A DNA stretch of 64,000 nt from an uncultured Eubacterium sp. (GCA_944380635.1 CALWID010000001.1:88374-152373), one strand, 5' to 3'. Shown: positions 6,596-20,610, counted from the first letter of the stretch. Notes: generated from the sequence alone by a model not told the origin. Program-made: numbers and translations.

Positions 6596-7813
6596 TCAGG
6601 ATAATTTGTATCTTTTTCCGCCGGCGCTCTGAACAAGGTCTGAAATCTCAAGCGCGGTAAGGGCGGTAAGCACTGCCGCCGAATCAAGGGAAGTTGCGGC
6701 GGCAATCTCGTCAACATGCATATATTCCTCGCCGAGAGCACGGTAAACTGCAAGCGCGGTTCCGCTGAGCGCGGCAGCGGCGCTTTGCCTTGCCTCGCGC
6801 TTTTTTCTGCTTTCGCTCAGATTTTCAAATGAAATACTGCCGGAAGTATCCTTTGCGTTCACTGCCCTGTGTGCAGTTTCTTTCATTATGGCGCCTACGC
6901 CCTTAGCGCCGCTTAAATCAATTCCGAAACGCTCCGCATACGGAAAGATAAGGTCAAGCGGTTTGGTGGCAACGACTGCGCCCTCGTCAATAAGTTTGTT
7001 TGTGCCGGCGTATTCCGGCTCAAGTATAGAGCAGGGAACAGCATAAACATCCCTGCCCTGCTCCGCCGCGTAATGGGCGGTAATAAGGCTGCCGCTTTTT
7101 ATGCCCGCCTCAACAACAAGCACGCCGAGCGAAAGCCCGCTTATAATTCTGTTTCTTATGGGGAAAGTGTATCTTGACGCTTTTGTAAACGGCTGGAACT
7201 CAGTTACAAGCGCCCCGTTTGCGGCAACGGCGTCCCTAAGCGGTTTATTTTCCATAAGATATTTTGTGCCGAGCCCGCAGCCGAGCACCGCAACAGTTTT
7301 GCCGCCGCTTAAAACAGCCGCGTTATGGGCTGCGGTATCAACTCCGAGCGCGCCGCCGGAAACAACAACCGCGCCTAACTGAGCAATCCCGCGGCTCATA
7401 ACATCCGCCGCTTTAACAGCGTAATCGCTTGCTTTTCTTGTGCCGACTATGCCGATAACTACGCTTGAATCAATATCCGGCAGAGTGCCTGAAACATAAA
7501 GCGCCGCGGGCGGATTATCCGTTTCATAAAGGCGCAGAGGATAATTTTCATCATCCGGTGTTATAACCTGCCAACTGTTAAGGCGGCATGTGGTAAGAAT
7601 ATCTCTTGCCTCATCAAGCGAAGTGCATTTAAGGTGTTCTACCTGGCGGGGAACAAGCACGGGGCTCATTTTCCATTCTGTTTCGCCCGCGTTATAAACC
7701 TCTTTAACGCCGCCGAAATATTCAATTATTTCTTTTATTCTTGCTCCCGCGCCGAGCGCGCTTTGGAGCCATACCCAATATGGCGTATTACTGTTCAACC
7801 AAGCATCTCCCAC
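6596..7813 (-). CDS. dprA: DNA-processing protein DprA
   Basis: IGIVGTRKAS, VSGGALGVD, FPIRNRIISGLS and SGSLITA motifs; C-terminal winged helix; upstream of topA. Confidence 0.95.
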   Translation of the reverse strand: MGDAWLNSNTPYWVWLQSALGAGARIKEIIEYFGGVKEVYNAGETEWKMSPVLVPRQVEHLKCTSLDEARDILTTCRLNSWQVITPDDENYPLRLYETDNPPAALYVSGTLPDIDSSVVIGIVGTRKASDYAVKAADVMSRGIAQLGAVVVSGGALGVDTAAHNAAVLSGGKTVAVLGCGLGTKYLMENKPLRDAVAANGALVTEFQPFTKASRYTFPIRNRIISGLSLGVLVVEAGIKSGSLITAHYAAEQGRDVYAVPCSILEPEYAGTNKLIDEGAVVATKPLDLIFPYAERFGIDLSGAKGVGAIMKETAHRAVNAKDTSGSISFENLSESRKKREARQSAAAALSGTALAVYRALGEEYMHVDEIAAATSLDSAAVLTALTALEISDLVQSAGGKRYKLS

Positions 7814-8586
7814 ATTACAATAGCGGCGGCGACGGAGGCGTTTAGGCTTTCCGCCCTGCCAAGCATATTTATGGTTAAAAACCCCGAGCAGGCTTTTTTT
7901 ACTTCATCTGAAACGCCGTTTCCCTCATTGCCTATTACGCATATATCAGAGCCGTTAAACTCTATGGTTTTTATATCCGCGGCTGAAGAATCGGGAACGG
8001 CGGCATACACGCTGAAACCGCGCGTTTTTAATTTATTTATTTCCGCCGCCAAATCATCAACAATCAGCACCGGCAGGCGAAGCGCGCCGCCCATTGAAGC
8101 GCGCAGGACTTTTGGATTATAAAGGTCGCAGCAGCCGCTGAAAACAGCGCCGTCAATCCCCAAAGCCTCCGCCGTTCTGATAACGGCGCCGAGATTGGCA
8201 GGGTCCTGAATTTTATCAAGCGCAATATATTTTTTGCCGTTTTCGGGATAAAAATCTATCTTTCTTTGAGAGCAAACTGCAAAAACGCCCTGCGGATTTT
8301 TTGTTTCGCTTAAATATGAGGCAAGTTCACTGCTTATAAAATAAGCCTTTTTAAAACCGTTTATAAGCCGCCGGCATTTTTCGGGATATTTTTGAGCCGC
8401 GTCTTCCGTTAGCAGCAGAATATCCGCGCCGCAATCGGAATTCAAGGCATCAAAACAAAGCCTTGCACCCTCCAGCGCCAACTGAGAAAAACGGGCGCGG
8501 TCTTTATGAGAAGTGAAAAGCTTTTTGGTATGCTTTATTAAATTATTTGATTTGCTTGTGATTTTCTCCATACCGAATGACTCCAC
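7795..8586 (-). CDS. TrmH/SpoU-family RNA methyltransferase
   Basis: IQDPANLGAVIRTA, IGNEGNGVS and ESLNASVAA SPOUT motifs. Confidence 0.92.
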   Translation of the reverse strand: MESFGMEKITSKSNNLIKHTKKLFTSHKDRARFSQLALEGARLCFDALNSDCGADILLLTEDAAQKYPEKCRRLINGFKKAYFISSELASYLSETKNPQGVFAVCSQRKIDFYPENGKKYIALDKIQDPANLGAVIRTAEALGIDGAVFSGCCDLYNPKVLRASMGGALRLPVLIVDDLAAEINKLKTRGFSVYAAVPDSSAADIKTIEFNGSDICVIGNEGNGVSDEVKKACSGFLTINMLGRAESLNASVAAAIVMWEMLG

Positions 8587-10699: not shown

Positions 10700-11602
10700 T
10701 CACTGCGATAACGGAAATGAAATTTTTCCGAGATGCTTGTAATCTATAAGTTTTATATCTTTTATATCACGGCTGTTATCAAATTCAAAGAAGTCCTTAA
10801 CCTCGGGATTAAGCCAAAGTTTAGGAGCGGGAAGGTCGCCCTCCTCATTCAGCCTGCGAATCTGCTCTTTAATGCCGTCCACCTGATTTACATAAATATG
10901 AGCGTCTTTAATGCTCCAATCAATAGTGCCGGGCTTAAGCCCGGAAACATGGGCAAGCATTGAAAGCAAAACGGCATACTGAGTAACATTAAAAGGCAGA
11001 CCGAGCGGAACATCGCACGAACGCTGGTGCACCCAACAGTTGAGTTTGCCGTTTGTAACATCCCATTCGCTGCTCCATACGCAACTCGGCAAAACGGCGG
11101 TATCAAGATAATCGTTTTGCCACAAAGTCATTACCATACGGCGGTCCTCAGGGTGATTCTGAATTTTATCTATAAGATTTTGAGTAAGATTGAATTTTTT
11201 AACTATGTAGCCGTATGCCGTGCCGATAGTATGGGCATATTCCCTGCCGAAAAATTTGTGAACTTTCTGTTTAACAAGATTTCCGTTTTCATCCGGCAGA
11301 AGTTGGGTGGCGTTCCAATAGCCGTCCTCGTCTATCTCCCACTCGTTCCATATCTTTACATCGCGTTCCTGAAGCCATCTTACATCATTTGACTGCGCCT
11401 GATATATCCAAAGCATTTCAAGCACTGCCTGCCTTATAAAAAGTTGTTTGGTTGTTAATATGGGAAATTCCTCTTCAAGGTCAAAATGAAAATGATGAGA
11501 AGGCACTTTAATGGAATTTACACCTGTTCTATTTACAACTTCCGTACCCTCGGTGAGTATTCTGCTGCAGAGGGCAAGATAATCTTTATCCCATTTAGAC
11601 AT
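10700..11602 (-). CDS. thyA: Thymidylate synthase
   Basis: LPSCVW catalytic Cys, QRSCDVPLGLPFN and DAHIYVNQ motifs. Confidence 0.97.
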   Translation of the reverse strand: MSKWDKDYLALCSRILTEGTEVVNRTGVNSIKVPSHHFHFDLEEEFPILTTKQLFIRQAVLEMLWIYQAQSNDVRWLQERDVKIWNEWEIDEDGYWNATQLLPDENGNLVKQKVHKFFGREYAHTIGTAYGYIVKKFNLTQNLIDKIQNHPEDRRMVMTLWQNDYLDTAVLPSCVWSSEWDVTNGKLNCWVHQRSCDVPLGLPFNVTQYAVLLSMLAHVSGLKPGTIDWSIKDAHIYVNQVDGIKEQIRRLNEEGDLPAPKLWLNPEVKDFFEFDNSRDIKDIKLIDYKHLGKISFPLSQ

Positions 11603-14109: not shown

Positions 14110-14317
14110 ATTTGATATGCCTCTTTATCTATAGTTTATTATTCAATGATATTATATCAGCAAATCAAATAAAATCAATATAATAAACGCCAAAAAATTA
14201 TTTTTTTATTGCCGTGATTTTTCCCCCATAACGAAAACTATTTCGGGCAGAAAACAGCGGCAATCAATTCGGTAATTCAGAGCGGAGCGCCGCTCTTTGC
14301 TGTAACGATTATAAAAA

Positions 14318-14367
14318 TATATGGTTTTGGAAAATTTTAAATTTATATGATTTTGGAAAATTTTAAA
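14318..14367. repeat. Tandem 24-bp direct repeat (period 26)
   Basis: TATATGGTTTTGGAAAATTTTAAA (14318-14341) and TATATGATTTTGGAAAATTTTAAA (14344-14367), 1 mismatch. Confidence 0.85.
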
Positions 14368-14391
14368 GCGGGCGGAATAATCCGCCCGCTT
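14366..14391 (-). terminator. Terminator hairpin closing the SCP2/aminotransferase/transketolase operon
   Basis: Perfect 11-bp stem AAGCGGGCGGA/TCCGCCCGCTT, 30 nt past the stop at 14422. Confidence 0.75.
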
Positions 14392-14421: not shown

Positions 14422-15216
14422 TTATCTTGCAAGGTCGCCGACTATCATCATATAATCGCCTATCATTGCGCCGAATTCGGGAGCGCCCTCCATAATAAGC
14501 TGCTTATCCTTAACCATCTGGAGCATATCGCCCGTGCCGAGCAGTATCATAAGAGCGTGCTGGGCTGTATCAAACTTCATGCCGAAAAACGGCTTTGAGC
14601 GTTTATATTCGCCCCTGCCGGCGCGGGATTTGCCCGCTTTTATACGCAGGTATGCCGTACATTCCGGATGGCCTTCAATTTCCCACTGATAAACTCTATC
14701 CGGGCTTTTTGAAGTCCATTCATGAATTTCCGGGTGCCCCATTTTATTTAACTGGCTTATGCCGCTTGAAAGCAGATAGAAATATAATTTGCACAAAAGG
14801 AGAGCAAGAGTTTCGTCTTCCGGCGGTTCTTTTATTCCGAGCAGGCTGCTCATTTTAAGAAGCACCGCCATAAATTTAATAAATTTGGAGAAAGACTTAA
14901 TCTTCATCTTCGGAAGTTTCGTCATATCGCCCTTCATAAAGGCATTCATCTTTTCCATAGATGAAAACTGCAACTCAGCGTCTATTTTCTTTTGACCGAA
15001 ATATTCGCCGAGTTTGCACGACCACTCGCCGTTTTCAACTATAAAATGAACCGCTTCCTTATCCTGCGCGTTTACCATTGCGGACACCTGATAAACAGCG
15101 TCCACGCCCTCAAACTTTTTTGCAAGTTCGGGCACATCGGTGGCAATCGTTTTCATAAGCGGGAGCGCCGCCGCCATAAACACTTTATTTGTATAACGGG
15201 TTACATCGCTTGCCAT
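14422..15216 (-). CDS. Hypothetical protein, probable tandem SCP2 (sterol-carrier/lipid-binding)-like domains
   Basis: Two halves each end in an SCP2-like pattern: AELQFSSMEKMNAFMKGD and FGMKFDTAQHALMILLGTGDMLQMVKDKQLIMEG. Fold recognised by eye only. Confidence 0.6.
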   Translation of the reverse strand: MASDVTRYTNKVFMAAALPLMKTIATDVPELAKKFEGVDAVYQVSAMVNAQDKEAVHFIVENGEWSCKLGEYFGQKKIDAELQFSSMEKMNAFMKGDMTKLPKMKIKSFSKFIKFMAVLLKMSSLLGIKEPPEDETLALLLCKLYFYLLSSGISQLNKMGHPEIHEWTSKSPDRVYQWEIEGHPECTAYLRIKAGKSRAGRGEYKRSKPFFGMKFDTAQHALMILLGTGDMLQMVKDKQLIMEGAPEFGAMIGDYMMIVGDLAR

Positions 15217-15261
15217 AATAACACATTCCTTTCTTGATAAGATTGTAAAGAGAGCGCCTGT

Positions 15262-16275
15262 TTAGAACTCGTCGTCCCAAGCGTCATCCTCTTCAAAATC
15301 CTGATGCATTACTTCGGCAATTGCTTCGGCAATACCGTTTGCGTCTATCTTTGCGAGCGACATAAGATCCTCATGCAGACCGATAGTAGAGAAAGCGTCC
15401 TGATGACCGAGCATCTTAAACGCGCACGCTTTACCGCTTTTTGCCACAACATCGGCAACAGCGGAGCCAAGACCGCCGACAACAGTATGGTCTTCAACCG
15501 TGATAATTCTTCTTGTATCCATAACGGCGGACATAATTGCCTCTTCATCAATAGGCTTAATTGTGTGCATATTGATAACACGAACTTTTATGCCGGCGTC
15601 CGCATTTGCCATTTGAGCCGCCTGCATAGCCTGATATACGCATGAGCCGCAGGCAATAACGGTAATATCCGTGCCCTCGTTCATAATCTTTGCTTTGCCG
15701 ATTTCAAAATCGCAGTCCTCAATATTCTTATAAATAATCTGGTCAAATCCGCGGTTAATTCTGATATAAACCGGGCCGGGATACTCATAAGCCTTTTTAA
15801 CGGCATGATATGTTTCAACACCGTCGCACGGGCAAATAACCGTCATATGAGGAAGGCTTCTCATACAAGCCATATCAATAAGAGAATGGTGAGTTGAGCC
15901 TGCCTGACCGAAAGAAGTGCCGGCGTGGGTTGCTATAATCTTAACCGGAACATTCTGATAGCAAATATCGGTATGTATCTGGTCAAGCGAACGAGCCGCG
16001 GTGAAGATAGCAAATGTTGAGGCGAACGGAATAAGCCCGTTTTTAGCCATACCTGCGGCAACGCCAAACATATTCTGCTCCGCGATACCTACATTGAAAA
16101 ATCTATCCGGGAATTTCTCGCCGAACATACCGATTTTAGTAGATTTAGCAAGGTCGGCGGTAAGGGCAACTACATCCTTATGCTCCTCGCCGAGTTCGCA
16201 AAGCGCCTTTCCGTAATATTCAGCCGTGGAAAGCTGAGTGGTTTCCGTCATTGTATAAGTCATTCCGCTTGCCAT
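15262..16275 (-). CDS. Transketolase-family C-terminal subunit (pyrimidine-binding plus C domain), atypical active site
   Basis: RFFNVGIAEQNM, ADLAKST, GPVYIR, VINMHTIKPID and VEDHTVVGGLG motifs. The canonical GEDGxTHQ reads GQAGSTHH. Confidence 0.93.
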   Translation of the reverse strand: MASGMTYTMTETTQLSTAEYYGKALCELGEEHKDVVALTADLAKSTKIGMFGEKFPDRFFNVGIAEQNMFGVAAGMAKNGLIPFASTFAIFTAARSLDQIHTDICYQNVPVKIIATHAGTSFGQAGSTHHSLIDMACMRSLPHMTVICPCDGVETYHAVKKAYEYPGPVYIRINRGFDQIIYKNIEDCDFEIGKAKIMNEGTDITVIACGSCVYQAMQAAQMANADAGIKVRVINMHTIKPIDEEAIMSAVMDTRRIITVEDHTVVGGLGSAVADVVAKSGKACAFKMLGHQDAFSTIGLHEDLMSLAKIDANGIAEAIAEVMHQDFEEDDAWDDEF

Positions 16276-16278
16276 AGC

Positions 16279-17172
16279 TTACGCCTCCTTTTCCGCGCGA
16301 GCCACACGAGCCGCGTAATATTTATCAAGACTGTCATAGCACATTTTTGTTTTTTCATCATCAAGCGCGCCGTAATGCCAGTGATAATCATCTTCCATAA
16401 AGTTGATTCCGGCGCCTTTAATAGTATCCATAACGATACAATAAGGCTTATCTCCGCCGTTTTTATGGTTGTTGATAGCGTTTTCGATAGCGCCGTTAAG
16501 TTCTTTCATATTTTGGCCGTCAACACGCTCAACAAGGAAGCCGAAAGCCTCAAACTTCTTATCAATCGGCTCAACTTTCATTTCGTCGTCAACTCTGCCG
16601 TCTATCATGCACTTATTATTATCAACAAGCACAACAACATTTGAGAGTTTAAACTGCGCGGCAGTCATAGCAGCCTCCCAGTTGGAGCCTTCGTTAAGTT
16701 CGCCGTCGCCGGTAAGAACATAGTTCATATAGTCTATGCCCTTAACTCTGCCGGCAAGGGCAAATCCGCAGGCAAGCGACATACCGTGGCCGAGCGAACC
16801 GCTTGAGCAGTCCACGCCTTTAATCTTATTGCAGTCAAGGTGCATACCGAAAAGCGAACCGGTAAGGTTGAAATTATGAAGACCTTCAACATCCATAAAT
16901 CCGTAATCGCAGATAACGGGGCCGTAACCAACAGCGGCATGACCCTTGGAAAGAATAAATCTGTCCCTATCCTCCATATCCGGATTATTGACATCGAGTT
17001 TCATAAAGCGGTGATAAAGAATAGTCATAGCGTCCATAGCGCTCATTGCGCCGCCTATGTGGCCTGAGCCGCCCCAAACGGTAGTCTGAACGGTAAGGCG
17101 CCTGAGTTCATCCGCCTTTTTTTCAAGGCGGAGCCATTCTTCTTTATCAAATGGCTTGTAATTTGCTGGCAT
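16279..17172 (-). CDS. Transketolase-family N-terminal (ThDP-binding) subunit
   Basis: GHIGG, DRFILSKGH, SGSLGHG and the ThDP motif GDGELNEGSNWEA...DNN. Confidence 0.94.
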   Translation of the reverse strand: MPANYKPFDKEEWLRLEKKADELRRLTVQTTVWGGSGHIGGAMSAMDAMTILYHRFMKLDVNNPDMEDRDRFILSKGHAAVGYGPVICDYGFMDVEGLHNFNLTGSLFGMHLDCNKIKGVDCSSGSLGHGMSLACGFALAGRVKGIDYMNYVLTGDGELNEGSNWEAAMTAAQFKLSNVVVLVDNNKCMIDGRVDDEMKVEPIDKKFEAFGFLVERVDGQNMKELNGAIENAINNHKNGGDKPYCIVMDTIKGAGINFMEDDYHWHYGALDDEKTKMCYDSLDKYYAARVARAEKEA

Positions 17173-17213
17173 AAATTTACCTCCTTAAATAAATAACCGA
17201 ATAATTCTTACGA

Positions 17214-18488
17214 TTATTTGAGTCCCTCAATTTCCGGATGCCTTTCAGCAACAACGCCGAAAGCATCCTCAGCAATATCAACAGCAAGTTTAACATCATC
17301 AGGCGTTATAGCGGCATTGATGAAATGATTGTGGTGAGAAGCAAGGAAAAGTCCCCTTGAAACACATTCCGCAATCCATTCCTGATGAAGCATAAGGCTG
17401 TCGTCATTCGCAATTCTTAAATAGAACAGAGCCGGCTCGCCGGAAACAATAAGATTAAATCCGTGCTCCTCGGCGGCTTTTGTAAAGCCCTGAGTAACTT
17501 CAGTGCCGATTTTTCTGAACAGATTAGGCACATCAAGTTTTTTCATTTTATTGATACACGCGATACAAGCCGCGAACGGCTCAGCGCTCATCCAATATGA
17601 GCCCGTATATGTAACTGAAGACGCAGTGGATTTCATATGTTCGCCGCCGCATACAGCGGACATATTATAGCCGTTTGCAAGCGCTTTACAGAAGCAGATA
17701 AGGTCTGCTTTAATGCCATAATAATGGTCTGAACCGGCAAGGTCAAGCCTGAAGCCCGTGCGCACATCATCAAAGATAAGCACCATACCGTGCTCGTCGC
17801 AGAATTTACGCACTGCCTGCCAATAATCCTTGGTGGCGCACTCGTTATCCTTGAAATTGCCGTGGTCATAAGGCTGAGCGATAAGACCGGCAACATCGCC
17901 GCCGCACTCATCATAAGCCTGCTGAAGAGCGTCCAAGTCAAACCACGGGATAACAACATTATTTGCAACTTCCTCCGGCAGGATACCGGGGTAATCCACT
18001 TTCTGAGCCCACTGGAAATCGCCGTGATAATATCCCTGAAGGAAAAACATTTTCTTTTTGCCGGTATGCGCTCTTGCGCACATAACTGAAAAAGTGGTGG
18101 CGTCTGAGCCGTTTTTCATAAAGAAAGCCCAGTCCGCGCTGGCAACGGTATCTTTAAGAAGTTCCGCGCACTCAACCATTTTATATGACGGTGAAGTGGT
18201 GCAGTTGCCGCGCTTTAACTGCTCAATCGCGGCGGCGTCTACATCATCATCGCAGTAACCGAGAACATTCGGGCCGTAAGCGCACATAAAATCAAGATAT
18301 TTATTGCCGTCCACATCCCAAAAATATGTACCTTTGGCATGGTCGCTCATAAGCGGCCATTTTGTAATGGGAAGGAAAAGACCTTCGCTTGGGCCAAGGT
18401 GGCCGTATACGCCGGATGGTATAGCCGCAAGCGCCCTTTTAAACCATTCCTGGCTTTTTTCGTGTTTATATTCTGGAAATTTACTCAT
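17214..18488 (-). CDS. Class III PLP aminotransferase, FumI-like subfamily
   Basis: DFMCAYGPNVLGY, KNGSDAT, FDDVRTGFR and PLP lysine in DLICFCKALANG. Start moved to MSKFP at 18488 (AAGGAGG upstream); the ORF track starts at 18557. Confidence 0.88.
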   Translation of the reverse strand: MSKFPEYKHEKSQEWFKRALAAIPSGVYGHLGPSEGLFLPITKWPLMSDHAKGTYFWDVDGNKYLDFMCAYGPNVLGYCDDDVDAAAIEQLKRGNCTTSPSYKMVECAELLKDTVASADWAFFMKNGSDATTFSVMCARAHTGKKKMFFLQGYYHGDFQWAQKVDYPGILPEEVANNVVIPWFDLDALQQAYDECGGDVAGLIAQPYDHGNFKDNECATKDYWQAVRKFCDEHGMVLIFDDVRTGFRLDLAGSDHYYGIKADLICFCKALANGYNMSAVCGGEHMKSTASSVTYTGSYWMSAEPFAACIACINKMKKLDVPNLFRKIGTEVTQGFTKAAEEHGFNLIVSGEPALFYLRIANDDSLMLHQEWIAECVSRGLFLASHHNHFINAAITPDDVKLAVDIAEDAFGVVAERHPEIEGLK

Positions 18489-18507
18489 ATCCGTAACATC
18501 CTCCTTA

Positions 18508-19272
18508 TCAGCCGAGATAAACTGCAACTCTGTCAAGAATTCTGTTGAGATTATCAACCATTGAAATCATACCGGACATATAAATATTGCCCTCGCAGAG
18601 TTCCGCAATAGTGGACGCAGTTCCGTTAAACAAGCCGTGCGCAAGTTCTATGCTTGCAAATTCCATAATTGCCCTGGGGTTTGACGGCTTTTTCTTAATA
18701 GTGGTGAAGTGGTGGTTTTTAACTTGAATTGCCGCATAGCATTTATCTTTAATGCCCATAGAAACAACGCCGTCCACCGTGCTTTTTGCGGTAAACATTG
18801 AAATTGAATCCGAATTGGCAAGCGCTGAAATAGCGCCGGCAATTGTGTAGAAAGTGAGAATGGTGGATTCCTCAAAGAACGCCTTATCTTTTAAATCCTC
18901 TTCACTCGGCCTTAGAAGTTTTGTAAGCCTGTCAGTAAGTTTAGTGAATGTGCCTAACAGGAAAGACAGAACCTGCACAACACCTTTTGTGGGGATACCC
19001 GGCTTAGCGCTGTCTATAAGCGCATTGAATTTTTCCGGTGAAGAAAAGTTCATTTTGCAGGTGCAGCCTGCCGAGCCTTCCCTGAATTTACAGCCGCTTT
19101 TTGTAAAATGGAATGTGCCGCACGGCCCGTTTGCAACATCAAAGCACAGAGAAACGGGCGATTTCATTGCTGCAAGGATATTCTTTGCCTCATCGTCTAT
19201 TTCGCAGAGATTTTCAAGCGTTGCCAGAACGCCGTACATATTCACATATGCCATTGCTTTTGCTTCAGTCAA
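18508..19272 (-). CDS. Hypothetical protein, probable tandem SCP2-like domains (distant paralog of 14422-15216)
   Basis: TTG start after GGAGG. SCP2-like ends: CKMNFSSPEKFNALID and RAIMEFASIELAHGLFNGTASTIAELCEGNIYMSG. Confidence 0.6.
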   Translation of the reverse strand: MTEAKAMAYVNMYGVLATLENLCEIDDEAKNILAAMKSPVSLCFDVANGPCGTFHFTKSGCKFREGSAGCTCKMNFSSPEKFNALIDSAKPGIPTKGVVQVLSFLLGTFTKLTDRLTKLLRPSEEDLKDKAFFEESTILTFYTIAGAISALANSDSISMFTAKSTVDGVVSMGIKDKCYAAIQVKNHHFTTIKKKPSNPRAIMEFASIELAHGLFNGTASTIAELCEGNIYMSGMISMVDNLNRILDRVAVYLG

Positions 19273-19308
19273 AACAATTCCTCCTTTAAAGCAAAATTAC
19301 ACAAAATA

Positions 19309-19338
19309 ATTATACCACATTGTCTGCAACGCGGTCAA
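19309..19338 (-). promoter_or_regulatory. Promoter of the five-gene operon
   Basis: TTGACC (19338-19333), 18-nt spacer, TATAAT (19314-19309) preceded by TG (extended -10). Confidence 0.7.
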
Positions 19339-19431: not shown

Positions 19432-20400
19432 TTAAACGCCCTGTTTTTCAAAGGGATAAACAAGACCGATTTGGCGGCGGCACTCATCCATAATGAGCAT
19501 ACAGTTCCTTGTTGCCTCAAACGGAATATACGCTGATTCTTTTCTGCCCTCTTTTATTTCCAGAGCGGCGCGGGTAAATTCCGTAAGATAATCTGTTTTG
19601 CCCTTAAACACCTGCCTGCCGTTTTCATTTTTAAGGACGGCTTTTGACGCCATATGAAAGAATGCCGGCAGACTTACCGTTCCTTTTTCTCCTTTGATAA
19701 GGCAGTTTTCCTTAAGCGTGCAGAGAGACATATGCAAAACGCAGTTGAATTTTTCATACTTCAAAGTAACTGTTTCGCTGATGTCAATACCGTTTTTAAG
19801 CCTGCCGCGGCATATTATTTCTTTTGGAAAGCCAAAAAGGTTATAACAGTAAGTAATGGGATAAATACCAATATCTAACAGCGCGCCGCCCGCCGTTTCA
19901 GGCATCAGCACGCGAGAATCTTTCGGCATCATTATCCCGGGAAAAGCATAATTTATGACAACTTCCTTTACTGCGCCTATTTCTCCGCCCTGCACCCATT
20001 TTTTAACGGTGAGGGCAACATCTGAAAACCAAGTCCACATAGCCTCGCAGAAATAAACATTTTCCTCTTTTGCGGTATTCACCAAGGCGTCAACATCGCT
20101 GACGCTTACGCCGACCGGCTTTTCACACAAAACGGGTTTTGAAAATTTCATTGCCCTTACGGCGTAATCAACATGTGAAGTATGCGGCGTTGCAATATAA
20201 ACGCCGTCCACATCCGTTCTGTTTACTGCGCTTTCAAAATCAATAAAACTTTGCGCGCCGTATTTTTGCGCAAAAGCGGCAGTTTTTTGGGGATTTCTGC
20301 CGAAAACCGAAACAATTTTATGATTGCCGCGAAGAATATCGCGGGCTGTTGAATTAGCGATATTTCCGCTGCCTATATACGCCCATCTGAATTTTTCCAT
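19432..20400 (-). CDS. Gfo/Idh/MocA-family oxidoreductase
   Basis: IGSGNIA Rossmann motif, YIATPHTSH, VLCEKP and GGALLDIGIYP. Start placed at MEKF (20400). Confidence 0.92.
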   Translation of the reverse strand: MEKFRWAYIGSGNIANSTARDILRGNHKIVSVFGRNPQKTAAFAQKYGAQSFIDFESAVNRTDVDGVYIATPHTSHVDYAVRAMKFSKPVLCEKPVGVSVSDVDALVNTAKEENVYFCEAMWTWFSDVALTVKKWVQGGEIGAVKEVVINYAFPGIMMPKDSRVLMPETAGGALLDIGIYPITYCYNLFGFPKEIICRGRLKNGIDISETVTLKYEKFNCVLHMSLCTLKENCLIKGEKGTVSLPAFFHMASKAVLKNENGRQVFKGKTDYLTEFTRAALEIKEGRKESAYIPFEATRNCMLIMDECRRQIGLVYPFEKQGV

Positions 20401-20610
20401 AATAATCACCATAGCCTTTCAGGCTGCAAAAAAATAAATTAAAATTATTAACGCCCACAACAGTTTATCTAAAAACATCAGCAGGATTTTTTTAATTTCA
20501 TTATAAAGCAAAACGCGCGCCGTATCAACAAAAAAGAAAAAGGGAGCGGCAAAAAAGCCTGCTCCCCATTGAGTAGCCTGATAAAATCAAACAAACAGTT
20601 TAATCTGACA

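Follow-up and report, generated by a model that had tools for sequence, protein, structure and literature searches.

What might five tightly packed genes that combine a class-III aminotransferase, a split transketolase and two carrier-like proteins be doing among the housekeeping genes of an uncultured Eubacterium sp.? The window analysed here, a stretch of 64,000 nt (GCA_944380635.1, CALWID010000001.1:88374-152373), carries such an operon, and the original prediction had read it as a pathway for long-chain 2-amino-1,3-diols running in either a catabolic or an anabolic direction. Our analysis partly supports this reading. The operon probably serves the catabolism, less likely the synthesis, of sphingosine-like amino-alcohol lipids. 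To the proposal as a whole, a pathway that handles a hydrophobic amino-alcohol in the cytoplasm and in which each of two enzymes has its own dedicated double-SCP2 carrier, we assign a probability of about 0.42.

Layout of the locus

The operon occupies positions 14422-19272 of the minus strand, with the genes in the order A, aminotransferase, TK-N, TK-C, B and gaps of 19, 41, 3 and 45 nt between them. In the direction of transcription, the features are:

19309-19338, minus strand: promoter-like site, TTGACC, 18 nt, TG-extended TATAAT; best-matching site of the region (11 of 12)
18508-19272, minus strand: protein A, 254 aa, predicted tandem SCP2 fold (AF2 model and Foldseek)
17214-18488, minus strand: FumI-like class-III PLP aminotransferase, 424 aa from ATG; PF00202, E 7e-37
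16279-17172, minus strand: TK-N, ThDP-binding transketolase subunit, 297 aa; PF00456, E 7e-43
15262-16275, minus strand: TK-C, transketolase subunit with Pyr and C domains, 337 aa; PF02779 and PF02780
14422-15216, minus strand: protein B, 264 aa, predicted tandem SCP2 fold (AF2 model and Foldseek)
14366-14391, minus strand: terminator-like hairpin, 11-bp stem with 8 GC pairs, 4-nt loop

The picture of five packed, co-oriented genes with a promoter and a terminator of their own is borne out by the open reading frames, the 11/12 site, the 11-bp hairpin and the housekeeping genes on both flanks, which include pyk, a mltG-like gene and trpS. Because promoter-like sites are no more numerous across the region than in shuffled sequence, the promoter is called from its position and quality alone. 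The hairpin begins 30 nt past the stop codon of B and was scored on the plus strand; its stem is palindromic, and its continuation on the minus strand is TAAAATTTT. Protein A starts at a TTG with an AGGAGG ribosome-binding site 7 nt before it. The aminotransferase frame (17214-18557) runs without a stop as far as a TTG at 18557, and its true start is likely the ATG at 18488. Pfam searches confirmed Aminotran_3, Transketolase_N, and Transket_pyr with Transketolase_C in the three enzyme genes.

Two carrier-like proteins and a FumI-like aminotransferase

The flanking proteins had been described as SCP2-like, and structure prediction clearly makes both of them tandem SCP2-fold proteins. When the AF2 models (pLDDT 91.3 and pTM 0.89 for A, pLDDT 94 and pTM 0.90 for B) were compared with the PDB by Foldseek, the best 46 matches of A and the best 45 of B were all SCP2-fold proteins or domains, at a probability of about 1.0. 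SCP2, UbiJ, the SCP2L domain of MFE-2 and the SCP2 domains of alkylsulfatases lead these matches, with target-normalised TM-scores of 0.5-0.64 per domain, and the models and matches place two SCP2-like repeats in each protein, in keeping with the SCP2 architecture of helices against a five-stranded sheet. The window's own A and B gave no match to Pfam SCP2 (PF02036), even at E 10, and A matched nothing in Pfam or NCBIfam, whereas 17 of 20 distant members of the B family (33-38% identity) do match PF02036 (best E 2e-9). A and B are weak paralogues of each other (BLASTP E 5e-5).

In UbiJ and the alkylsulfatase SdsA1, SCP2 domains supply enzymes with hydrophobic substrates; the SCP2 fold alone is no proof of lipid binding. 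A and B have the alpha/beta fold in common with SCP2/SCPx, MFE-2 SCP2L, UbiJ and the C-terminal domain of SdsA1, and differ from these lipid handlers in fusing two repeats into one protein of about 260 aa. Their genomic partners are constant or nearly so: A adjoins the aminotransferase in every gene arrangement found, and B, whose family is small (162 clusters at 50% identity among 1.84 billion proteins), lies nearly always beside a transketolase gene. We propose that A is a carrier dedicated to the aminotransferase and that B is an obligate partner of the transketolase.

A and B might instead be structural or regulatory subunits, with the enzymes acting on a small amino-polyol, an amino-sugar derivative or an amino acid; serine or an aminotriol, for example, would become a ketose, to be channelled by the transketolase into sugar metabolism. 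The missing Pfam matches of the window's own A and B would agree with such a soluble substrate. We nevertheless hold it to be very improbable, since both proteins clearly have the SCP2 fold, relatives match PF02036 and soluble sugar pathways offer no parallel to enzymes that each have a dedicated carrier-like protein.

In the case of the aminotransferase, the prediction of a FumI-like enzyme agrees well with the comparisons made here. Its best PDB match is FumI (6hbs, E about 4e-79, full length), against 1e-46 for the GSA aminomutase HemL (3bs8), and its Schiff-base Lys, within CFCKALANG, aligns with that of FumI. Judged by these similarities it is FumI-like and not HemL-like, FumI being the closest characterised enzyme. 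It scores under the HemL and GntE NCBIfam cut-offs, and an identity as HemL was rejected (TIGR00713, 179.7 bits against a cut-off of 527.3; NF000818, 195 against 398).

FumI is the aminopentol (hydrolysed fumonisin B1) aminotransferase of Sphingopyxis sp. MTA144 (PDB 6hbs/6hbv) and shares the class-III PLP fold. It deaminates a long-chain amino-alcohol that is an analogue of sphinganine, with pyruvate as the acceptor (PMC3136697), a use of pyruvate that fits the alanine dehydrogenase of four variant cassettes. Its role is catabolic and its natural substrate is a 1-deoxy base (PMC3136697); its product is therefore a methyl ketone and not a transketolase-type ketol. As described, FumI comes without mention of an SCP2 partner or a transketolase, unlike the aminotransferase of the window.

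A split transketolase with an altered substrate site

The predicted split transketolase was recovered as two adjoining genes, TK-N (PF00456) and TK-C (PF02779 and PF02780), which divide the domains between two polypeptides. Their best PDB matches are 6yak, the split transketolase of C. hydrogenoformans, for TK-N and 6yaj for TK-C. Residues were numbered as in E. coli and aligned with human transketolase, that of C. hydrogenoformans and the paralogues of the same genome. TK-N keeps the His equivalents of H26, H66, H100 and H261, TK-C keeps the equivalents of S385, H461, H473 and R520, and the catalytic and cofactor motifs GSGH, SKGH, GMH, WHY, THAG and STHH are found together with the metal motif GDGELNEG. 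TK-C has Ala18 in place of R358 and Ala125 in place of D469 (GQAG, not GEDG), and TK-N has Asn at the position of R91. The same alignment extends these changes to the whole SCP2-linked clade, with R358 replaced by Ala or Thr, D469 by Ala, R91 by Asn or Gly and GHP by GMHLD, the catalytic His being unchanged. On this alignment, the transketolase has lost sugar-hydroxyl- and phosphate-binding residues (Asp, Arg).

The canonical split transketolases, that of Carboxydothermus hydrogenoformans (6yaj/6yak) and the housekeeping pair of the window's genome (contig C22), have the two-gene architecture, the domains and the cofactor and catalytic His in common with TK-N and TK-C, but they retain R358, D469 and R91, have no SCP2 neighbour and show only 43% identity to the SCP2-linked clade. 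C subunits within the clade are 56-61% identical to TK-C, against 43% and 35% for the other two split transketolases of the genome. An assignment as canonical sugar-phosphate transketolase (EC 2.2.1.1 equivalog) was rejected on the loss of D469, R91 and R358 and on NCBIfam scores of 226 and 287 bits against 488.

A hydrophobic substrate, rather than a sugar phosphate, is likely. The clade-wide loss of the sugar-hydroxyl Asp and the phosphate Arg speaks further against small soluble substrates, for which the three retained phosphate-site residues (equivalents of S385, H461 and R520) can be adduced; because these residues are kept, there is room for a phosphorylated partner.

Directed evolution of the E. 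coli transketolase lends weight to one of these changes. Replacement of D469 by Thr opened that enzyme to non-polar aldehydes (PMC5073344), so that the position changed in the laboratory is the one naturally altered in the SCP2-linked clade (PMC5073344, PMC5813273). The engineered transketolase-transaminase cascades, built from D469/R520 variants of the E. coli enzyme and omega-transaminases, use the reaction pair and ketodiol intermediate proposed here; they are artificial, accept short-chain or aromatic substrates, have no carrier proteins and run in the synthetic direction only.

Such cascades bring to mind a synthesis, in which a sphingoid-like base would be made without serine palmitoyltransferase by the net reaction of fatty aldehyde and serine to 2-amino-1,3-diol and CO2. 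The aminotransferase would turn serine into hydroxypyruvate, the transketolase would decarboxylate this and join the C2 unit to a fatty aldehyde that B brings to it, and the aminotransferase with A would aminate the resulting 1,3-dihydroxy-2-ketone at the expense of serine or alanine. The chemistry is that of the cascades to chiral amino-alcohols (PMC5813273, PMC8719814), and with D469 lost, aldehyde acceptors that are not hydroxylated are favoured. We consider this direction unlikely; FumI, the closest characterised aminotransferase, is catabolic, and no reductase that forms fatty aldehydes is linked to the cassette.

A natural precedent for a transketolase proposed to act on a hydrophobic ketol was missed in the original prediction. 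DesAB is a split transketolase encoded in a rare, cortisol-induced operon of C. scindens, desABCD, whose four genes are desA, desB, a Zn-dependent dehydrogenase (DesC) and a symporter, and it has been proposed to act on the ketol side chain of the steroid, cleaving it by transketolation (PMC3735941). The likeness, drawn from its description, would lie in a transketolase of two subunits, encoded by a gut Clostridium, and a hydrophobic HOCH2-CO-C(OH) ketol. In contrast to the operon of the window, desABCD is described without an SCP2 protein and without an aminotransferase. Conversely, the operon and the genes conserved around it include neither a DesC-type dehydrogenase nor a DesD-type transporter, in the window and in 80 related loci alike, and the Zn-dependent dehydrogenase is confined to aminotransferase-free environmental variants, where it is DesC-like and accompanied by a 3-beta-HSD-like extended SDR. 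The five-gene cassette itself is without described function in the literature; the broader claim that nothing similar had been described should be softened.

Could the substrate be hydrophobic but not sphingoid? With the chemistry unchanged, candidates would be steroids or isoprenoids that carry a side chain of the dihydroxyacetone type, aromatic 2-amino-1,3-diols, bases of sulfonolipids (capnine, for instance) and 1-deoxy amino-alcohols, among them hydrolysed fumonisin. We find this doubtful, even if several observations point that way: the link that DesAB makes between a split transketolase and steroid ketol cleavage (PMC3735941), the dehydrogenase and SDR of the aminotransferase-free modules, the SCP2 domains in the Foldseek match list, which bind sterols and quinones as well as alkyl chains, the presence of the cassette in the cholesterol-reducing Eubacterium coprostanoligenes, and the 1-deoxy base that is the real substrate of FumI (PMC3136697). 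No steroid-specific gene, however, is linked to the module in the gut cassettes. In transketolase structures H100 and H473 of E. coli are residues that we take to contact the C1-hydroxyl of the donor, and because their equivalents are kept, a 1-deoxy methyl-ketone donor is disfavoured. To our knowledge, steroids in which a carbinol stands beside a primary or secondary amine are uncommon in nature.

Conservation, proposed pathway and gene neighbours

Of 80 species-level loci, 72 carry all five genes and the remaining 8 end at a contig edge; the genes stay together when reordered to TKN-TKC-B-A-AT. Their co-conservation is far above chance, in agreement with what the original prediction had expected of a gene-neighbourhood comparison. 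What had not been recognised is a smaller core. In Desulfobacterota, Dethiobacteria and metagenomes, the TKN-TKC-B module is present in 69 of 70 distant loci, with B directly downstream of TK-C, often at 5-10 nt, in 69 of the 70, and the aminotransferase accompanies it in 23 of 30. The conserved core is transketolase plus B, and the aminotransferase with A is a frequent but optional add-on. The cassette ranges from gut Clostridia to sediment bacteria and is patchy, occurring in 4 of the 301 genomes that were sampled within the order; in the form seen in the window, it keeps its place among housekeeping genes in genomes of about 2 Mb.

Because of the SCP2 folds, the likeness to FumI, the residues lost from the transketolase and this co-conservation, a pathway from hydrophobic amino-alcohol through ketol to aldehyde is the most economical reading. 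Conversion of an amine to a ketol and then to an aldehyde plus a C2 unit is fairly probable as its chemistry; a sphingoid-type substrate degraded in the catabolic direction is a more tentative part of the proposal. Protein A would hold a long-chain 2-amino-1,3-diol resembling a sphingoid base, and the FumI-like aminotransferase would transfer its C2 amino group to pyruvate, leaving a 1,3-dihydroxy-2-ketone besides alanine. This lipid ketol would be presented by B to the split transketolase, the two proteins probably forming a stoichiometric complex, and the enzyme would cleave it between C2 and C3 to release a fatty aldehyde and keep a glycolaldehyde C2 unit on ThDP, to be passed to an aldose acceptor or released. 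The net effect would be to remove a membrane-active amine and let its chain enter fatty-aldehyde or fatty-acid metabolism. Stereochemistry is an argument against this pathway: canonical transketolases form and split ketols of 3S configuration, but natural D-erythro sphingoid bases have the 3R configuration.

In other phyla, the variable neighbours appear, from their annotation, to be lipid-related and mostly catabolic. They include TetR regulators and alanine dehydrogenase (the latter in the four variant cassettes), a FadL/TodX channel, an aldehyde:ferredoxin oxidoreductase and an acyl-CoA dehydrogenase, and the Zn-dependent dehydrogenase and 3-beta-HSD-like SDR named above belong here too. 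We favour a catabolic or detoxifying direction over synthesis; besides these catabolic-looking neighbours, the patchy occurrence within the order would be odd for a core membrane-lipid route, and we know of no report of sphingolipids from these Clostridia. On the other side stand a constitutive-looking promoter, a gut cassette in which no transporter, regulator or aldehyde dehydrogenase was found, and a fixed housekeeping setting in genomes of about 2 Mb, all of which would also suit biosynthesis. A PlsC-type acyltransferase 5 nt upstream of A (L098), a fatty-acid hydroxylase after B (L099) and a DAG/lipid-kinase-like gene near the module (L167) likewise look anabolic or lipid-modifying.

Two APC-type amino-acid/polyamine permeases, of a type usually moving soluble amines, lie with alanine dehydrogenase in one locus (L092), and a PIG-L-type N-deacetylase follows B in four others (L001-L004). 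Both would speak for a soluble substrate, but it is FadL, acyl-CoA dehydrogenase, PlsC, fatty-acid hydroxylase and TetR genes that recur beside the module.

Layout of the cassette and its conservation in gut lineages

The cassette consists of five co-oriented genes separated by gaps of 19, 41, 3 and 45 nt. Where a promoter and terminator of their own had been predicted from the sequence, a promoter-like site and a hairpin were found, together with the five ORFs.

Features of the operon (window coordinates)
19338-19309, just 5′ of A: promoter-like site (TTGACC, 18 nt, TG-extended TATAAT), 11/12 matches, the best of the region
18508-19272, minus strand: protein A, ORF of 254 aa
17214-18557, minus strand: class-III aminotransferase, ORF; likely start at ATG 18488, giving 424 aa
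16279-17172, minus strand: transketolase N subunit (TK-N), ORF
15262-16275, minus strand: transketolase C subunit (TK-C), ORF
14422-15216, minus strand: protein B, ORF of 264 aa
14366-14391, after B: GC-rich hairpin of 11 bp

If the aminotransferase started at the TTG at 18557, the upstream limit of its open frame, it would run 50 nt into gene A. A start at ATG 18488 (MSKFPEYK...) agrees with the point where homology to FumI and HemL begins, leaves a 19-nt gap and is probably the true one. As anticipated, the operon lies among housekeeping genes, its flanks carrying pyruvate kinase, an mltG-like gene, a GFO/IDH/MocA oxidoreductase, trpS and a class-I aminotransferase, and the GC content of the block gave no sign of foreign origin. 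A 26-nt AT-rich repeat in two tandem copies (85% identical) occupies 14308-14359, between the terminator hairpin and the promoter region of the pyruvate kinase gene.

A scan that took one genome per species identified at least 559 species-representative stretches encoding a relative of B. The best 80 of these loci belong to Eubacterium, Ruminococcaceae and CAG-341-type MAGs from the intestines of humans, chickens, rabbits and ruminants; all five genes were present in 72 of them, and the remaining 8 end at a contig edge. The five genes are thus co-conserved across gut Clostridia. Four loci (L076-L079) show the order TKN-TKC-B-A-AT (AT, aminotransferase), so the cassette has been rearranged while the AT-A and TK-B pairs and the whole set survived. 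Within the window's order the cassette is patchy, since only 4 of the 301 genomes sampled carry B. One complete cassette belongs to a cultured, cholesterol-reducing type strain, Eubacterium coprostanoligenes ATCC 51222 (L068; NZ_FUWW01000010.1), where identity is lowest for A (67%) and reaches 77% for B, 78% for TK-N, 84% for TK-C and 86% for the aminotransferase; this strain is a practical organism in which function can be tested directly.

Could other genes belong to the pathway? Beyond the cassette, the genes of the related gut loci are of housekeeping type and differ with phylogenetic distance, and no transporter, regulator or additional enzyme was consistently linked to the cassette in these flanks. 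The conserved neighbours were rejected as pathway members, all of them being housekeeping genes (trpS, class-I aminotransferase, mltG-like, pyk, infC, thyA, glyA). The upstream oxidoreductase (19432-20412) was considered as part of a rifamycin/kanosamine-type amino-sugar route with the aminotransferase and transketolase; it is probably not a cassette member, because its position is kept in only 6 of the 80 loci, all near relatives. A link with taurine or with a sulfoquinovose 'sulfo-TK' was likewise discarded, sulfo-sugar and sulfonate genes being absent nearby.

The SCP2 proteins, the aminotransferase and the transketolase pocket

Proteins A and B are weak mutual paralogues (E 5e-5), and neither matched any Pfam or NCBIfam model at E values up to 10. 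Because family scans gave nothing, their fold was approached through alignment-based AlphaFold2 models (pLDDT 91.3 and pTM 0.89 for A; 94.0 and 0.90 for B), each showing two successive alpha/beta repeats. When these models were compared with the PDB by Foldseek, SCP2-fold proteins filled the top 46 places for A and the top 45 for B, with a probability of about 1.0 and TM-scores of 0.5-0.64 per target domain. Among the matches are SCP2, MFE-2 (SCP2L domain), UbiJ, insect SCP2s, AF1534, TT1886 and the alkylsulfatases SdsA1 and Pisa1 (SCP2 domain). The family is small (162 clusters at 50% identity with E < 1e-3 among 1.84 billion representatives), and 17 of 20 distant members match Pfam SCP2 directly (best E 2e-9). 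The SCP2-like character proposed for A and B is therefore borne out as a tandem SCP2 fold and, if A and B serve the two enzymes as proposed, these domains would have found a new use as dedicated partners of soluble enzymes.

In the case of the aminotransferase (Pfam Aminotran_3), the expected resemblance to FumI held: the best solved-structure match is FumI (6hbs; E 4e-79, full length, with the Schiff-base lysine aligned), compared with 1e-46 at best for a GSA aminomutase. HemL and GntE functions were rejected, as the scores (180-195 bits against HemL cut-offs of 398-527, and 209 bits against 525 for GntE) fall far under the curated thresholds; indeed, none of the operon enzymes reached an NCBIfam equivalog cut-off. 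In Sphingopyxis, FumI serves as aminopentol aminotransferase: it strips the C2 amino group from hydrolysed fumonisin B1, a sphinganine analogue, with pyruvate as preferred acceptor (PMC3136697).

The transketolase subunits carry Transketolase_N (TK-N) and Transket_pyr plus Transketolase_C (TK-C) in Pfam, and score 226 and 287 bits with the NCBIfam transketolase models, against a cut-off of 488. Their top solved-structure matches are the split enzyme of Carboxydothermus hydrogenoformans (6yak, 6yaj), followed by human transketolase. In the residue alignment, the enzyme retains its catalytic and cofactor positions (counterparts of E. coli H26, H66, H100, H261, H461, H473 and the GDG...N motif) as well as the counterparts of S385 and R520, and has replacements at three substrate-pocket positions.

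Replaced positions (residue alignment; window numbering refers to TK-C)
E. coli R358; human R318; window Ala18
E. coli D469; human D424; window Ala125 (GQAG in place of GEDG)
E. coli R91, salt-bridge partner of D469; window Asn

Because a canonical split transketolase on another contig of the same genome (C22) keeps the equivalents of R358, D469 and R91, the operon enzyme is, as judged from its residues, an additional, specialised paralogue. In E. coli transketolase the D469-R91 salt bridge is normal, and directed evolution showed that D469T opened the enzyme to non-polar aldehydes (PMC5073344). The cassette may thus offer a natural transketolase pocket already suited to non-polar substrates, at the very position chosen by engineers.

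The genome further encodes a DXS and a third split pair outside the window (contig C8, 29879-31677), with GSLG at the D469 site, among genes for a sugar transferase, an aldo-keto reductase and a glycosyltransferase. Owing to its location in this glycosyltransferase-type cluster, the C8 enzyme is probably tied to polysaccharide synthesis and was dismissed as a cassette relative.

A core module and its variants in other phyla

A profile built from distant members located the family in Desulfobacterota, Dethiobacteria, Myxococcales, Nitrospirota-type and other MAGs. Neighbours were counted in these distant genomes and in 80 metagenome loci. B lies directly 3′ of TK-C in 69 of the 70 loci that extend far enough upstream, and a FumI-like aminotransferase occurs in 23 of the 30 that allow a judgement, mostly alongside an A-type protein; the invariant core is therefore TKN-TKC-B, with the aminotransferase and A as a common add-on. 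Since the spacing between TK-C and B is often just 5-10 nt, coupled synthesis of the two proteins is suggested. The distant TK-C proteins share 53-61% identity with that of the window and the same substitutions (46% for a more distant variant, L099).

Variable neighbours of the core module
TetR regulators: 5 variant loci
Alanine dehydrogenase: 4 variant loci
Zn-dependent MDR dehydrogenase: 9 loci, in aminotransferase-free modules
Extended SDR of 3-beta-HSD or epimerase type: 8 loci, in aminotransferase-free modules, with the MDR dehydrogenase
Others: acyl-CoA dehydrogenase; FadL/TodX outer-membrane channel; aldehyde:ferredoxin oxidoreductase; PlsC-type acyltransferase; fatty-acid hydroxylase-family enzyme; DAG- or lipid-kinase-like protein

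Almost all of these look like proteins that handle hydrophobic compounds, and the majority look catabolic. A Deltaproteobacteria MAG (L092, 1433-11383) encodes TetR, a class-III aminotransferase, a single-domain SCP2 (119 aa), a second aminotransferase, an APC permease, TKN, TKC, B, another APC permease and alanine dehydrogenase. With 21-24% identity, its two aminotransferases, both class-III and flanking the SCP2 gene, fall outside the FumI orthologues, so the aminotransferase-SCP2 pairing may have evolved on more than one occasion.

Substrate, direction and precedents of the proposed pathway

Four observations speak for a hydrophobic substrate and against a sugar phosphate: the two SCP2 carriers, the fact that the aminotransferase is closest, among characterised enzymes, to one for a sphinganine analogue, the loss from the transketolase of the Asp that binds hydroxyl and of one Arg that binds phosphate, and the lipid-type neighbours in other phyla. 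A soluble substrate, with the SCP2 proteins as structural subunits, appears very improbable. Transamination at C2 of a 2-amino-1,3-diol would yield HOCH2-CO-CH(OH)-R, which is the transketolase donor motif, and cleavage of this ketol by the transketolase would release a fatty aldehyde and leave a C2 unit bound to ThDP. This route from amine through ketol to aldehyde, put forward in the original prediction, is kept as the most likely chemistry. Canonical transketolases take 3S ketols and natural D-erythro sphingoid bases are 3R. Because of this mismatch, a threo base or a different lipid may be what the pathway really acts on; some other hydrophobic substrate altogether is a possible, if minority, reading.

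In which direction would the pathway run? A catabolic or detoxifying role is favoured, because alanine dehydrogenase would restore pyruvate, because TetR, FadL, aldehyde oxidoreductase and acyl-CoA dehydrogenase typify catabolic clusters, and because there is a catabolic precedent. In a cortisol-induced operon of Clostridium scindens, the split transketolase DesAB, adjoined by the Zn-dependent dehydrogenase DesC, has been proposed to cleave the dihydroxyacetone side chain of steroids by transketolation (PMC3735941).

An anabolic role, in which fatty aldehyde and serine would give the amino-diol via hydroxypyruvate, is unlikely and is retained because the gut cassette has no regulator or aldehyde-handling gene and sits among housekeeping genes, and because the PlsC, hydroxylase and kinase neighbours at other loci would fit biosynthesis. 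It is quite unlikely that the cassette is a natural serine-palmitoyltransferase-free route to sphingoid-type bases (fatty aldehyde + serine to 2-amino-1,3-diol + CO2), relying on a lipid transketolase fed with hydroxypyruvate, a single recycling aminotransferase and SCP2 chaperones; if so, sphingolipid-like lipids that have so far escaped notice would be produced by many anaerobic members of the Firmicutes and Desulfobacterota.

To our knowledge, the only established breakdown of sphingoid bases is phosphorylation followed by S1P lyase. These bases are abundant in the gut, where they derive from diet, host cells and Bacteroides, and they are both antimicrobial and signals to the host. The favoured catabolic pathway, if true, would be an oxygen- and ATP-independent alternative or, in reverse, a second way to build them. 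Cassette-directed searches of the open-access literature turned up no account of a lipid operon that joins a transketolase to SCP2 proteins or to an aminotransferase. The single reactions have precedents in FumI, DesAB and engineered transketolase-transaminase cascades, and the parts belong to known families. What is undescribed is how the genes combine, the obligate pairing of TK with SCP2 and the pathway proposed for them.

One lineage (L001-L004, 57% identity to B) carries a 146-aa SHOCT-like ORF between the aminotransferase and TK-N (about 7570-8010) and a PIG-L/LmbE-type N-deacetylase after B (about 10843-11583). The presence of the latter hints at an N-acylated precursor in this lineage.
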